A program made the position numbers and the translations under genes. Below, piece after piece: positions 33,302-37,464 of a stretch of 64,000 nucleotides of DNA (the stretch's first letter is position 1; each line of letters begins with the position of its first letter). The notes below the pieces were generated by a model. That model was not told where the DNA came from and did not search any database. It saw only the letters and a list, made by a program, of their open reading frames with translations. Origin of the DNA: Candidatus Latescibacterota bacterium (GTDB lineage Bacteria > Latescibacterota > UBA2968 > UBA8231); the NCBI GenBank assembly GCA_965204725.1, contig OZ242005.1, positions 1,728,001 through 1,792,000 on the forward strand. The letters are read 5' to 3'.

Positions 33302-33630
33302 TGTCTGAACATCACGTAGTTCCGCTCAAGATCTACTTTCTGATCTTCTTCGCCCTAATGATTGGCACCGTCCTCACGGTCGCCGCGGCCTTCGTCGATA
33401 TGGGCTTTTTGAATACGCCGGTCGCCCTGATCATCGCCTTAGTAAAGGCATCGCTGGTCATTTTGTTCTTCATGCACGTAAAATACAGCCCCAAGCTGGT
33501 CGGGCTGTTTGCCGTGGCCGGCTTCTTCTGGCTGTGCATCCTGCTGGCCTTGACCATGCAGGATTACTACACGCGCGGCTGGGGCGAGGAAGCACCGGTG
33601 GAGTTTTTGCAGGAAGGGTCGTTCTTCTAA
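33301..33630 (+). CDS. Cytochrome c oxidase subunit IV
   Basis: KASLVILFFMHVKY; 3 TMs. Confidence 0.88.
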   Translation: MSEHHVVPLKIYFLIFFALMIGTVLTVAAAFVDMGFLNTPVALIIALVKASLVILFFMHVKYSPKLVGLFAVAGFFWLCILLALTMQDYYTRGWGEEAPVEFLQEGSFF

Positions 33631-33720
33631 GTTTTAAGTCGAGCCTTACCAAGGCACGGGCGAGAGATACTCGTCGCCAAGCCGTGGAGATTCGGCAGCG
33701 CATCCCTGCCGCTTCTGCAT

Positions 33721-33757
33721 AAAAAAGCCCAAGCCGCTTTACACGGCTTGGGCTTTC
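33721..33757. terminator. Likely bidirectional terminator between the cox operon and the TA cluster
   Basis: AAAAAAGCCCAAGCCG...CGGCTTGGGCTTT hairpin. Confidence 0.75.
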
Positions 33758-33777
33758 GTCCTATACGCTTCCCCATT

Positions 33778-33956
33778 CTACTCTGTCGCTCGCGCCGCCT
33801 TGAGAAAGGCTACCACCTCCTTGTAGCACTCCTTCTTTTCGCCGCCCTCAATGTGGGAACCCCGGCCAGCCCATGTCAAGGCCATCCCTTCGGAGTTATT
33901 TTGTTTTGGGCGTTGACCTCGGCACCGAGATCCACCAAAAACTTTACTATCTCTAA
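33778..33956 (-). pseudogene. Frameshifted ankyrin-gene 3' remnant
   Basis: LEIVKFLVDLGAEVNAQ/(CAAAA duplication)/NNSEGMALTWA...EVVAFLKAAR; nucleotide copy of 34469-34551. Confidence 0.8.
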
Positions 33957-33970
33957 TTGAAGTGGAGAGA

Positions 33971-34189
33971 CTACAAACGCTCCCAAGTTGTCCGACTAAC
34001 ACCGGCCTGCGCTAAAATTTTATTCAAAAGCCCACGGCCAATGTCGCCACGATGTGGGTTAGGCAGGACAAGACGCGTCTTATCTCGGACCATATACTGA
34101 TGATTCCCCCCAGAATAGGGGCCTTCAAATCCCAATCTCCTCAAATAGCGAATAAGATCGCGGTGACTCAGCGGTCCAAATTGGGGCAT
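33971..34189 (-). CDS. HicA family toxin
   Basis: LRRLGFEGPYSGGNHQYM, PNPH, LLNKILAQAG; TGATG coupling to the upstream gene. Confidence 0.9.
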   Translation of the reverse strand: MPQFGPLSHRDLIRYLRRLGFEGPYSGGNHQYMVRDKTRLVLPNPHRGDIGRGLLNKILAQAGVSRTTWERL

Positions 34190-35172
34190 CACACCGATTC
34201 CGGTACGCCCTCCAAGCGCACCCCATCCACTTCAGGAAGCAGATGGTTCATTTTCAATCCGAGGGTGATCCAGCCCTCAAGCACGGATTGCAATTCTTCG
34301 CGGCACTGTTCCAAGGTCTCCGCATTTGCATACACGCCTTGAAATCCGACAATTTCTCCATAAAACGTTTGATCGTCGAGTACCTCGAATGTCGTGCGTC
34401 TCATCGCCAACTGGATATATCGGGCCATTCTGAGAAAATCTGCCATCTCCTGATAGTCGCCCGCTTCGGCCCATGTCAAGGCCGTCTCACCGGAGTTATT
34501 TCGGTCGTTGACCTTCGCACCACGGTCCACCAAAAACTTCACCACCGCTAAACGATCGCTAACGGCGGCCTTCATCAAGGCCGTCCAGCCGCGGTTATCC
34601 TTGGCGTGGATATCGCCCCCCTTGGAAATCAAAAACTCCACGACCGCTAAATGGCCACCCCAAGCGGCCCGCATCAAGGCCGTCTCGCCATCTTTATTAC
34701 CGATGTTAATATCGGCCCCCTTACAAACCAAAAAGCGCACTACCGCTAAACGGTCCTCCATAGCAGCCTTCATCAAGGCCGTCCAGCCGACGTTGTTTTG
34801 GGCATTGACATCAACATCAGCCCCGCTAGCCACCAAAAACTTCACTACCGCTAAATGGCCGCCTTGAGCAGCCCACATCAAGGCCGTCCAACCATTCGCA
34901 TCGCGGATGTGAATATCCGCCCCCTCGGCCACTAAAAAGCGCACCATCGCCAAGTAGCCATCTTGGGCCGCCCACATCAAGCTGGTCGTCTGTCGCGCCC
35001 CTTGCCCAATATAGGACTTGAGCAATGCCTGCACCGACATGTCTCGGTTGGCGGCGACCTGCTTGAGAGAATGGAGTACATCCTTGGGTATCTCTATGGA
35101 TACCGTTTCCGTCGCACGAGGACGGAACGCAAGCGCAAATTCTTCTTTCTGTTTGGTTTCAGGCGTCTTCAT
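34189..35172 (-). CDS. Chimeric protein: BrnA/RHH-like antitoxin (aa 1-60) + 6 ankyrin repeats + HicB domain (aa 252-327)
   Basis: RPRATETVSIEIP..RDMSVQALLKSYIGQG; TALMxAA..G/DxLAVVxFLVxxGADI repeats; YIQLAMRR..FYGEI.GFQGVYANAETLEQCREELQSVLEGW. Confidence 0.85.
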   Translation of the reverse strand: MKTPETKQKEEFALAFRPRATETVSIEIPKDVLHSLKQVAANRDMSVQALLKSYIGQGARQTTSLMWAAQDGYLAMVRFLVAEGADIHIRDANGWTALMWAAQGGHLAVVKFLVASGADVDVNAQNNVGWTALMKAAMEDRLAVVRFLVCKGADINIGNKDGETALMRAAWGGHLAVVEFLISKGGDIHAKDNRGWTALMKAAVSDRLAVVKFLVDRGAKVNDRNNSGETALTWAEAGDYQEMADFLRMARYIQLAMRRTTFEVLDDQTFYGEIVGFQGVYANAETLEQCREELQSVLEGWITLGLKMNHLLPEVDGVRLEGVPESV

Positions 35173-35452
35173 ATAACTTCCTTTCAGGAGGCGTTGCGCG
35201 ACGCGCAGATATGATGCGCGTCCATTGGTCTCGCTCTACGTAAACGACCAGCAAAATGCGTTGCTGAAACGAGTACCCAAGAATGAAATTCCGTTGTTCG
35301 GCACCCGTGGATGCGTCACCTATTTGATAAAAACGATCGAAGAAGACTTCGGCGGCTTCTTCAAAATGGACGTGATGCTTCTGCACATTGCTTTGGGCTT
35401 TGTTCTCATCCCACTGAAACCTGATGTCTTGAAGTTGGTATTCGATGTCCAC
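35159..35452 (-). CDS. BrnT family toxin
   Basis: FQWDENKAQSNVQKHHVHFEEAAEVFFD, RIISARRATPPERKLYE. Confidence 0.92.
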   Translation of the reverse strand: MDIEYQLQDIRFQWDENKAQSNVQKHHVHFEEAAEVFFDRFYQIGDASTGAEQRNFILGYSFQQRILLVVYVERDQWTRIISARRATPPERKLYEDA

Positions 35453-35475
35453 AAGACGAAGGATCGCCTCCCCTA

Positions 35476-35718
35476 CTACTCTCCGCCCTCGTAAAGCCCT
35501 TTGCGGCTAACCGCGTACTCGGACAATGGGGGGCAATCGGGACCAACACAATCCATAAAATCGTCTGCCAACTGATCGGCTAGGGCCTCAAATTTATCAT
35601 CCGATAGCGGCTCTACCTTAACCTGCTCCCATGGGACGAATTCGATCAGCACGGATTGCTTCTCACCATTAGAATCCACGACAAACTGGGATTTTTGAAT
35701 CCGGTCAGCAACGCCCAT
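35476..35718 (-). CDS. Small antitoxin-like protein, probably chimeric
   Basis: QFVVDSNGEKQSVLI..PWEQVK N-part and FEALADQLADD..LSEYAVSRKGLYE C-part each resemble TA antitoxin fragments. Confidence 0.55.
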   Translation of the reverse strand: MGVADRIQKSQFVVDSNGEKQSVLIEFVPWEQVKVEPLSDDKFEALADQLADDFMDCVGPDCPPLSEYAVSRKGLYEGGE

Positions 35719-35749
35719 TTCGTTCTTCTTTTTTGGTCCCAAACGGCCC

Positions 35750-35848
35750 TCACGCAATGTCGCGCACCAGCACCAAGATCGCCGCCTGCGGCACGACGAT
35801 AAACTTCTCGTCGTCGAACTTGATTTCTACCGCGTCTTTGCACAGGAA
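35750..35848 (-). repeat. 99-bp duplicate of the groES-like gene 3' end
   Basis: Matches 37792-37890 with 6 substitutions; includes the stop codon. Confidence 0.95.
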
Positions 35849-35855
35849 TTTTGAC

Positions 35856-36332
35856 CTACCCTTTATCTGTTCCATCTTCTTGTTTCAACTCTAATTCATC
35901 GAGAACGAGCACGTCCACATCCGCTACACGTTTGAGTGCTTTATCGTTGGTTAAGAAAACCTGACAGTTCGCTGTCTTAGCAACGGCAACTTGTAATGCG
36001 TCAGGTGTGCGTAACCCATGTTGTGCCCGGAGAATAGCCGCTTGCTCGGCTACTTTTGCGTCAACAGGCAACGTATAGAAGTTGGCACTGTGAAGCAACA
36101 AATCGCGATATTCTTTTTGCAAATGAATCTCTCCTTGTTCCAGAGGCTGAGTTAAAACTTCCGTCAAGGTAATGACTGAAGTAAATCCTGTAATGATTCC
36201 TTGATGAATTCTGTGAAAAATCTCGGTAACTAATCTATGGTACGCGGGATTCATTTCGATTAGATAGATGATGGGCGCCGTATCGAATCCTACCCTTGTC
36301 ACATCCGCCAATGCGTCATCCAGTGCGATCAT
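35856..36332 (-). CDS. PIN-domain (VapC-like) toxin
   Basis: FDTAPIIYLIE, TSVITLTEVL, LRTPDALQVAVA, FLTND. Confidence 0.92.
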   Translation of the reverse strand: MIALDDALADVTRVGFDTAPIIYLIEMNPAYHRLVTEIFHRIHQGIITGFTSVITLTEVLTQPLEQGEIHLQKEYRDLLLHSANFYTLPVDAKVAEQAAILRAQHGLRTPDALQVAVAKTANCQVFLTNDKALKRVADVDVLVLDELELKQEDGTDKG

Positions 36333-37464
36333 GGTTGGTATCCCATTCTTCACGAAGACGATCAACGTACGTTTGAGCATCTACCCCTTGCCAAATCTCT
36401 CTACCTAATCCACGCAACTCCAGAATACTCCGTTTTTTAGGCTCCTGTTGGGCGATGAGAGCCAATTTTAACCGGCGCAGATGCTCTGGCGAAGGATCCC
36501 ACCAAATAGGATTTGCCAACGATCCTTCTTGGCCTCGTAGCCTATCGTTGCACCGCTTCGTTTCCTTTGAATCTGCACGCGATTGCACATCTCCAACCTT
36601 TGCTAGGCGATGCAGGGGGACCGGCGTGTCATGGGTCAATTCTTCATAGAGACGGTTGCGTAACCATGCGACGTTCCGAGGTATGAGGTTATGGCCAAAC
36701 AGTTGGTTGGCAACATTCCCAATGCATCCATAGGTAGCCAGATGGCCAAATGGAATTTGCGTAATGATCAGGGCTACATGCCATCGCCACTCTCCCTTAG
36801 AGTTTCGCAACTGTGCTTCAATACCTTGCAAATCTTCTTCAATACCCTGCAAATCTTCTTTCGTAGTTTTTTTTATTGTATCGCAGTACTGGGCAAGCCT
36901 TTCGGCTACTTCATTCCCGAATTTTTCCAGCCGGGAGTCTAGGGATTCTCGCGTCTGTAGCAGCGACTCCTCCAACGCCTTGATACGTCGCTGTAGATGA
37001 GGATGAGGAACCATGGCGTATAGTTGCTTAGCCACTTCTAGGTCCAGCTCAATCCGACCTATCGAGTTGTAGAGGTAAGGGAGCTTGTTCCTGTACTCTT
37101 CCACCTTCCCCCCCACCAACTCATTGATCGCATCCCAGTCGAAGATGATAGGCGGCCGCTCCTCAGCAGGGATTAGCTCAAACCCCCTCCTCCACTCCTC
37201 GGCCTTCTTCAGCAGAGCAGGCAGACGTTCCGGCCAGTCGTGGAGCATGTTCGGCGAGAAGTCGGCTCCGGTAGGCCAAGTTGGGACCCCATCGTCCAGA
37301 TAAACTTGGTTGAACAGTTTGAGGTCCTTTAGGGGACTATATATCCGGCCTGATAAGATAGGACGAAGATCGGCCTCTTGGCATGTACCGTCCTCAAAGG
37401 AGGCCCGTAGCTTGTAGGGACCTATCACTTCCAGACGGATCACTTTATGAAGTTTATAATCCAC
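36316..37464 (-). CDS. Chimeric protein: DUF2442 (aa 1-91) + coiled coil + alkyltransferase-like DNA-binding domain + VapB-like tail
   Basis: YKLRASFEDG..PLKD..FNQVYLD..TWPTGADFSP; QIPFGHLATYG..PRNV..PLHRL; RSILELRGLGREIWQGVDAQTYVDRLREEWD. Confidence 0.8.
   Translation of the reverse strand: MDYKLHKVIRLEVIGPYKLRASFEDGTCQEADLRPILSGRIYSPLKDLKLFNQVYLDDGVPTWPTGADFSPNMLHDWPERLPALLKKAEEWRRGFELIPAEERPPIIFDWDAINELVGGKVEEYRNKLPYLYNSIGRIELDLEVAKQLYAMVPHPHLQRRIKALEESLLQTRESLDSRLEKFGNEVAERLAQYCDTIKKTTKEDLQGIEEDLQGIEAQLRNSKGEWRWHVALIITQIPFGHLATYGCIGNVANQLFGHNLIPRNVAWLRNRLYEELTHDTPVPLHRLAKVGDVQSRADSKETKRCNDRLRGQEGSLANPIWWDPSPEHLRRLKLALIAQQEPKKRSILELRGLGREIWQGVDAQTYVDRLREEWDTNHDRTG
36816..36860. repeat. 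In-frame 21-bp tandem duplication (EDLQGIE x2)
   Basis: CTTCAATACC(T/C)TGCAAATCTT twice. Confidence 0.9.

Follow-up and report, generated by a model that had tools for sequence, protein, structure and literature searches.

The gene described in this work is located on the reverse strand of a 64,000-nt stretch of DNA from a Candidatus Latescibacterota bacterium (GenBank assembly GCA_965204725.1, contig OZ242005.1, positions 1,728,001 to 1,792,000; hereafter the window, whose coordinates are used throughout). Its open reading frame (ORF) encodes a fusion protein, in which a ribbon-helix-helix (RHH) segment resembling the antitoxin BrnA is followed by an array of ankyrin repeats and by an antitoxin domain of the HicB type, and it is flanked by the genes of two predicted toxins, BrnT and HicA (Table 1). 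The start of the fusion ORF overlaps brnT by 14 nt, and its stop codon overlaps the start of hicA in the sequence TGATG, where a single base (position 34189) is common to the TGA of the fusion and the ATG of hicA. The placement between brnT and hicA with these overlaps, reported in an initial annotation made from the sequence alone, is evident from the DNA, and the architecture proposed there (an RHH-like segment, six ankyrin repeats and HicB) is confirmed by the results of Pfam, of an AlphaFold2 model and of Foldseek.

Table 1. Coordinates of the fusion gene, its parts and the surrounding features in the window
Feature	Position	Strand	Remarks
Fusion ORF	34189..35172	-	327 aa; brnT upstream, hicA downstream
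BrnA-type ribbon-helix-helix segment, divergent	34990..35172	-	aa 1-61; PF12441 sub-threshold match
Ankyrin array, 5 full repeats and a capping repeat	34429..34989	-	aa 62-248; Pfam Ank families
HicB-type antitoxin domain (UPF0150)	34192..34428	-	aa 249-327; PF21748; stop codon 34189-34191
hicA	33971..34189	-	72 aa from ATG 34189; 73 aa from in-frame GTG 34192; PF07927
brnT, RelE/BECR-type ribonuclease toxin (predicted)	35159..35452	-	97 aa; GTG start; PF04365
brnA::ank 3'-end remnant, decaying	33778..33956	-	second helix of repeat 5, capping repeat, stop codon
Intrinsic terminator, hairpin and U-run	33720..33757	-	-27.2 kcal/mol, z -5.5 (RNA fold)
93-aa ORF	35476..35757	-	internally deleted version of the 150-aa RelB/Phd-like protein of genome G023
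GroES-like gene fragment	35750..35875	-	41 aa, C-terminal; 132 aa in genomes G043 and G006
PIN-domain gene	35856..36380	-	upstream of brnT
382-aa ORF	36316..37464	-	DUF2442 match; C-terminal end like the small antitoxin-like ORF of genome G007

Five Pfam families match the ankyrin part of the fusion with E-values between 1.6e-50 and 1.5e-31 (Ank_2: 1.6e-50; Ank: 1.1e-47), and the array exhibits a periodicity of 99/105 nt in the DNA. In the AlphaFold2 model of the full-length protein there are six helix pairs (aa 59-258), and the predicted local distance difference test score (pLDDT) exceeds 90 across most of the array; owing to a shallow alignment, aa 1-24 and the HicB part have a low pLDDT, and this model was left out of any reading of contacts between the domains. 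The N-terminal segment (aa 19-55) is matched by the CopG_antitoxin family (PF12441, the BrnA family) with an E-value of 8.5e-5 (score: 23.7 bits; Pfam cut-off: 28), the alignment covering positions 40-76 of the 79 positions of the profile, while the NCBIfam BrnA model (NF047399) yields 17.8 bits (cut-off: 60). The C-terminal part (aa 251-313) is matched by the UPF0150 family (PF21748) with an E-value of 5.9e-26 (score: 90.6 bits; Pfam cut-off: 27.3).

The last 79 aa of the fusion, modelled separately from an alignment of 63 sequences (pLDDT 92.4), have as the nearest solved relative the protein TTHA0281 from Thermus thermophilus (2DSY; template modelling (TM) score in Foldseek: 0.85-0.88; sequence E-value: 3.6e-11), followed by N-terminal domains of HicB proteins from Burkholderia pseudomallei, Escherichia coli and Yersinia pestis (6G1C, 6U0I, 6HPB, 6G26, 4P78, 4P7D; probability: 0.96-1.00; TMq: 0.58-0.67). 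The predicted fold of this part thus matches the HicA-binding N-terminal domain type of HicB. Well-studied HicB proteins carry, in addition, a C-terminal DNA-binding domain of the RHH or helix-turn-helix (HTH) type. A Pfam search of the fusion protein gave no match to PF15919 (HicB_lk_antitox), and none of the DNA-binding families in Pfam matches its HicB part; the domain ends after 79 aa, and its free-standing kin are ~80-90 aa long. The hicA gene behind it (ORF 33971..34192 on the reverse strand) scores 49.4 bits with HicA_toxin PF07927 (Pfam cut-off: 27), its product is similar to PDB structure 1WHZ (E-value: 2.2e-5), and it is as long as the copies in three related genomes (G011, G010 and G008; genomes are denoted by G numbers, G000 being the window's own). 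In G000 we found 13 matches to HicA, 5 to BrnT and 6 to UPF0150. Among the latter the fused domain is the sole strong one (94 bits), the other five reaching at most 27.5 bits; if hicA is indeed toxic, the fused HicB domain would be its only evident antidote in the genome.

The product of brnT is assigned to BrnT_toxin (PF04365) with 87.9 bits against a Pfam cut-off of 34.5 (87.7 bits in the family search of its own genome), and it is similar to PDB structure 7vd7 ("toxin"; E-value: 3.9e-9). It is 74-78% identical to the products of six brnT genes of relatives, each of which lies upstream of a BrnA homologue. The alignment of the seven BrnT sequences reveals invariant K25-H26 and F37, and E90 in six of them, BrnT of the window included, residues that we equate, by pattern and spacing only and not by an alignment with Aave_1720 or Brucella BrnT, with K17, H18, F29 and E86, reported to be necessary for the RNase activity of the BrnT-like toxin Aave_1720 (PMC10714953). 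The antitoxin gene follows directly 3' of brnT, in the same order, in G043, G006, G023, G119, G036 and G118. The N-terminal 61 aa of the fusion share 59-92% identity with the N-termini of ten proteins from related genomes, and an intact brnT precedes six of these ten. Prediction of a complex between BrnT and two copies of aa 1-66, with all chains given as alignments, returned a score of 0.59, with 0.50 for the single control, a result that speaks neither for nor against binding. BrnA has been described as bearing an RHH domain that autoregulates brnTA (PMC11980606, PMC10714953).

The distribution of the N-terminal segment was analysed with aa 1-66 as a query against 168 genomes of the phylum, 33 of which contain a match with an E-value of at most 0.001 and 12 a strong one (E-value of at most 1e-15). 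Strong matches in ankyrin-fused open frames (267-348 aa) occur in G000, G046, G043, G006 and G023, all of them members of the genus; the BrnA::ankyrin proteins of these relatives comprise 255-265 aa and end with the ankyrin cap, without HicB, and in G011 the brnA::ank gene is broken into three pieces. Plain BrnA homologues of 69-114 aa, five of the six outside the genus, were found in G134, G119, G036, G008, G118 and G025; they have the N-terminal 60 residues in common with the fusion, followed by a short or helical tail without ankyrin repeats, and in G119, G036 and G118 they are preceded by an intact 97-aa brnT; the plain BrnA encoded after brnT outside the genus measures 78-114 aa. These plain homologues, too, score just 21-23 bits with PF12441, and the whole group is a divergent BrnA subfamily, assigned from its gene position and a consistent sub-threshold match. 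Since the ankyrin-fused forms are confined to the genus, whereas plain BrnA is found outside it, the array replaced the BrnA tail within the genus; the alignments place this older step at or just past the conserved YIGQG motif. In G043 the order is a GroES-like gene, brnT, brnA::ank and convergent cytochrome oxidase genes, i.e. the neighbourhood of the window without the extra genes.

A second query (aa 215-327), searched against 31 genomes of the genus including G000, was matched across the ankyrin::HicB junction in G000 and G007 only. In nine genomes (G011, G010, G008, G002, G009, G042, G001, G004 and G013) the similarity sets in at query residues 22-35 (66-78% identity) and hicB is free-standing, its product of ~83 aa starting with MLTAYIQ and being 71-78% identical to the fused domain; an intact hicA of 72 aa comes next in G011, G010 and G008, its start overlapping the hicB stop as in the window. 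At the DNA level, the homology of the fusion to free-standing hicB begins at hicB codons 4-5. On the other side of the junction, the fused cap corresponds to the ancestral cap without a 30-nt (10-aa) loop, and hicB takes the place of its last few codons. We have also considered an origin of the last ankyrin repeat from a foreign ankyrin gene, and rejected it because the alignment identifies it as the ancestral cap with the 30-nt loop deletion. These comparisons show that the younger step linked the ankyrin cap in frame to a hicB-hicA cassette, the joint lying within the first four codons of hicB.

Directly past the hicA stop codon there is a remnant of the 3' end of brnA::ank, which a three-frame translation revealed to be readable only with a frame switch. 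Its DNA (repeat families D3 and D4) is 74-79% identical to the ORF's last repeat, and it can be aligned to the 3' ends of the orthologues from G046, G043 and G006; together with the hairpin that follows, it is nearly identical to the 3' flank in G046, except for a frame-breaking 5-nt insertion. The hairpin, folded separately from the promoter scan, which did not report the terminator beyond the remnant, is the original brnA::ank terminator and now closes the brnT-fusion-hicA unit. With a loop-deleted cap before hicB and the remnant after hicA, the insert is bounded by two diverged copies of approximately the last 1.5 repeats; such flanking copies could have arisen when a circular intermediate integrated by a single crossover, or when repair duplicated the segment.

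Close relatives of the fusion were sought in a public collection of 5.8 billion proteins of 179-573 aa by a word-based search, which reaches close relatives only. With aa 1-66 as a query, 6 proteins were found from 11 candidates: three of them, with 328, 326 and 226 aa, are triple fusions, and the other three lack HicB; with aa 249-327, 20 candidates yielded only the three triple-fusion clusters. These clusters, defined at 90% identity, comprise 22 members, the window's own protein among them, and the frame is full length in 19, of which ten have 326-328 aa and nine, the three-repeat forms, 226 aa. The remaining members are P0175, which is frameshifted in HicB, P0165, a protein of 112 aa with one repeat and HicB, and P0174, which is cut short. 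Variable columns among the 19 number 9 of 58 in the BrnA part, 20 of 79 in the HicB part and, for the six-repeat forms, 46 of 191 in the ankyrin part. In G007 the junction and the position beside the oxidase genes are kept, but everything upstream of the last repeat is lost, leaving a 121-aa ORF with one repeat and HicB; a frameshift close to the 3' end affects the hicA behind it (83 aa). In this genome (locus L014, positions 1244-2024) the deletion has brought the last ankyrin repeat into contact with the 3' end of an ORF for a small antitoxin-like protein.

Searched by phmmer among 1.84 billion representatives, the HicB part had 1372 matches with an E-value of at most 0.001. The best 150 of them are proteins of 54-167 aa, among which all eight with at least 128 aa carry UPF0150 only, without ankyrin repeats. 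Neither an ankyrin-HicB nor an RHH-ankyrin antitoxin was found outside the lineage in the close-relative word searches and among these best 150 of 1372 matches. The rarity of the arrangement suspected in the initial annotation is borne out by these numbers, the HicB part having led to three closely related clusters among 5.8 billion proteins. A scan of metagenome contigs with the whole protein reported 16 loci and no close relative: 15 are free-standing and of the HicB type (38-65% identity) and one, L032, is a match to the ankyrin region (37% identity); locus L034 is a plain hicB-hicA pair. A look-up of the fusion in the ESM Atlas returned ankyrin clusters only.

The stretch is present in sequencing runs of nine studies, some labelled as sponge or marine metagenome and none recorded as RNA, and four runs (X3, X5, X6 and X10) were compared with the locus. 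In X6, a run from another study, a single contig of 11,199 nt covers positions 33650-35550 with 64 differing letters and 3 gaps, one of the differences being T>C at position 34428 (forward strand), which changes codon 249 from ATG to GTG. The X10 contig omits 298 nt with one letter between, a net loss of 99 codons that corresponds to the three-repeat form. From X5 four pieces were obtained, with a likeness of at least 99%, none of which covers the whole stretch. A chimera of assembly was considered and rejected on account of the independent 11.2-kb contig across the locus and the 19 full-length variants.

The initial annotation pointed to an internal methionine, at codon 249, from which HicB might be translated separately, in which case the long ORF would essentially be a BrnA::ankyrin protein with a minor tail. 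Codon 249 (ATG in the window, GTG in relatives) is one codon from the start of free-standing hicB, and both triplets are able to start translation. However, the methionine is found in the window alone, 18 of the 19 full-length variants having valine as residue 249, and the 5-10 nt ahead of the codon contain nothing like a Shine-Dalgarno motif: the GTGAG-type motif, which precedes the ATG of free-standing hicB by ~6 nt, is replaced in the fusion by sequence coding for the ankyrin cap, and the nearest AGGAG is 18 nt upstream. Moreover, none of the 19 variants has a stop between the array and HicB. Although the valine codon, GTG, could still serve as a start, we regard a separately translated HicB as very unlikely.

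Ratios of non-synonymous to synonymous substitution rates (dN/dS) were calculated by the Nei-Gojobori method with a custom script. In comparison with four orthologues, the BrnA part has values of 0.25-0.44 and the ankyrin part has values of 0.21-0.38; in comparison with free-standing copies they are 0.17-0.41 for the HicB part and ~0.2 for hicA. These estimates indicate that purifying selection acts on each part whose DNA could be compared.

The comparative analyses presented above show the fusion to be a real, lineage-restricted chimeric gene of two-step origin. With moderate confidence, we take its product for a double antitoxin that is also an autorepressor and has kept the ankyrin module of its ancestor. 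According to this model, brnT, the fusion and hicA would constitute one translationally coupled operon, ending at the old terminator. The fusion would dimerise via its N-terminal RHH, which would supply operator binding upstream of brnT and, with the N-terminal segment, would neutralise BrnT, while the C-terminal HicB domain would sequester HicA, as in the solved complexes. Since this type of HicB lacks a DNA-binding domain of its own, we propose that the fusion places hicA under the control of the BrnA repressor. The ankyrin array could serve as an inherited rigid spacer or as a module for binding of a partner.

Several observations weigh against a double antitoxin. The BrnA part stays under the curated cut-offs of both Pfam and NCBIfam, and BrnT of the window has H27, R40, Y42 and N55 at positions where all six relatives share G, P, H and D. 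The brnT gene is eroding in relatives: in G046 just aa 30-93 are retained upstream of an intact brnA::ank, and in runs X3 and X10 a net 33 nt are deleted from it in frame. Upstream of brnT, neither the alignment of 180 nt from seven genomes nor a promoter scan (sigma-70; positions 33500-36500; 1 site versus 1.9 expected) revealed a conserved operator or promoter, the lack of a conserved operator in the alignment being attributable to flanks that differ among the seven genomes. Decayed derivatives of the fusion exist (G007, P0175 and P0165), and the loss of three repeats is tolerated, which implies that the full length of the array is not required. Finally, dN of the fused hicB is ~0.11, as compared to 0.00-0.03 among the free-standing copies of G011, G010, G008 and G002, and dN/dS of the fused hicB between G000 and G007 reaches 0.53; this quicker evolution could reflect a relaxation of constraint as well as an adjustment that followed the fusion.

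Decay and raised dN/dS would also be expected if the gene was evolutionary debris, i.e. a neutral by-product of the insertion of a cassette into a decaying toxin-antitoxin (TA) junkyard, of which at most the HicB part matters. The remnant and the duplicated ankyrin segment on either side of the insert are compatible with such an origin, as are the truncated genes around the locus (the GroES-like fragment, the internally deleted RelB/Phd-like ORF and brnT of G046) and the breakage of free-standing hicBA as well, with hicA short in G002 and G009 and not found after the G001 copy; besides, deletions between 99-nt repeats keep the frame without selection. On the other hand, the frame is open over its full length in 19 of the 22 cluster members despite up to ~15% protein divergence, dN/dS is far under 1 in all three parts, and hicA is intact in a genome with no other close HicB. 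This explanation seems to us rather improbable.

With respect to the eroding brnT, one can also envisage that BrnA::ankyrin has been domesticated as a regulator with a BrnT-independent role, onto which the HicB-HicA pair hitch-hiked. The brnA::ank gene of G046 (263 aa, GTG start) is constrained (dN/dS 0.23-0.44) although its brnT lacks the first 29 codons, the brnT deletion in the X3 and X10 contigs points in the same direction, and conserved tryptophans in the array suggest a conserved partner. However, brnT is intact and coupled to the antitoxin gene in G000, G043, G006 and G023, and the decay of TA modules usually passes through orphan antitoxins. We consider a domesticated regulator unlikely. 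In G046 (locus L049, positions ~1701-1892) the residual brnT, which exhibits 81% identity, is linked to a PIN-gene end and a GroES-like fragment.

The tryptophans in question are W95, W130 and W196, each at the position before the TALM motif, and W67 and W234 in the first helix; all five are invariant in eight sequences of the fusion and its orthologues and would line the groove of the array. At groove-type positions, assigned from designed ankyrin proteins, the mean pairwise identity is 0.68 versus 0.77 elsewhere, so that they are slightly more variable, yet not hypervariable. The near-conservation of the groove and the invariant tryptophans suggest a conserved partner, or none, instead of an arms race.

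This bears on the function ascribed to the array in the initial annotation, i.e. recognition of a phage or host protein followed by release of BrnT and/or HicA. Ankyrin arrays are in general protein-binding modules, the conserved tryptophans occupy several groove positions, and ankyrin-bearing defence candidates of PADLOC (PDC-M72A, Ankyrin and MzaA) match the array. These matches are, however, confined to the repeats and far under the family cut-offs (e.g. NCBIfam MzaA: 107 bits; cut-off: 800), which also holds for the ankyrin-only matches to Legionella Ank effectors, and none was obtained with PADLOC for the four neighbouring proteins tested. In addition to the absence of hypervariability in the groove, three-repeat forms persist, relatives that retain the array have brnT lost or damaged, and the 48 ankyrin matches in the genome imply that recruitment of the array by recombination needs no special function. 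An inherited array of six or three repeats with many conserved groove positions lends no support to sensing coupled to toxin release, and we find such a sensor highly doubtful. In a broader version, which we also judge quite improbable, the tryptophan-lined groove would couple an outside signal, be it an animal-host protein, a phage protein or a cellular partner, to the RHH repressor and two tethered RNase toxins. If true, a single-polypeptide hub would arm or disarm two unrelated toxins together, and BrnA::ankyrin would be a ligand-gated antitoxin of a new class, from a lineage associated with sponges.

The locus is crowded with TA genes, and the genome is rich in ankyrin proteins. The region upstream of brnT (35476..37464, reverse strand) is a patchwork of TA parts, the identified members of which are listed in Table 1. 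The 48 matches to the ankyrin part in G000 include clusters of side-by-side ankyrin ORFs, e.g. at positions 2575000-2581500, 2655000-2660000 and 1259000-1263000 of its contig C1. In G043 (locus L031, C1:1192967-1193113) we identified a 49-residue HicB-like stretch (59% identity) within an open frame of 419 aa, which may be another fused or decayed copy. Among the free-standing pairs, hicB is intact in loci L025 (G002), L026 (G009) and L028 (G001), while hicA enters foreign sequence after ~14 codons in the first, encodes 44 aa in the second and was not found after hicB in the third.

Among the papers listed by searches of the literature, supplements excluded, there was neither an ankyrin-bearing antitoxin nor a protein with two antitoxin domains. 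The apparent novelty of the fusion consists in the combination, within one polypeptide, of antitoxin domains of two unrelated families, encoded between both toxins. The locus can be regarded as a natural experiment, in which G043, G006 and G023 keep the ancestral state, G046 is an intermediate whose toxin is broken, the fused state is kept in six-repeat and three-repeat forms, and G007, P0165 and P0175 are decayed descendants. It could reveal how TA modules merge, whether a borrowed repressor domain takes over a second toxin, and whether repeat arrays in antitoxins serve as spacers or as sensors. Even if the fusion is merely a tolerated accident, it is a clear case of a TA cassette inserted into a gene of another TA system.

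Among the known systems, the C-terminal part of the locus resembles HicA/HicB of E. coli (6HPB), B. pseudomallei (6G26) and Y. pestis (4P78) with respect to the HicA family, the fold of the HicB N-terminal domain and the adjacent overlapping genes. The solved HicB proteins are, however, 132-141 aa long, compared with 79 aa for the fused domain, and their extra C-terminal part is a DNA-binding domain of the RHH or HTH type; at the fusion locus the antitoxin comes first, and the sole DNA-binding domain is the BrnA-type RHH at the far N-terminus. TTHA0281, a UPF0150 member deposited as hypothetical, is a free-standing protein of ~87 aa, without an ankyrin array or RHH. The likeness to MzaA of the MZA system and to PDC-M72A of PADLOC resides in the ankyrin repeats alone, their partner parts not having been sought here. 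In its N-terminal part, the locus shares with BrnT/BrnA of Brucella abortus the order of toxin and overlapping antitoxin, a BrnT that exceeds the family cut-off and an RHH antitoxin (PMC11980606, PMC10714953). It differs in that the BrnA part is sub-threshold and lacks ~20 N-terminal profile positions, and in that 266 residues (the ankyrin array and HicB) are added to what is a short antitoxin in BrnT/BrnA. Single-gene TA fusions, which show that TA parts often share one polypeptide, are described for the RelE/ParE superfamily, including 32 BrnT-BrnA fusions in Table 2 of PMC11980606, the main text of which contains neither "ankyrin" nor "HicB"; those fusions join a toxin with its own antitoxin, whereas here two unrelated antitoxins are fused and both toxins are separate. 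SR6, a bifunctional type I RNA antitoxin of Bacillus subtilis (PMC5848175), is directed at two toxins whose genes flank its own; SR6 is, however, an antisense RNA, whereas the fusion is a protein with two separate antitoxin domains.

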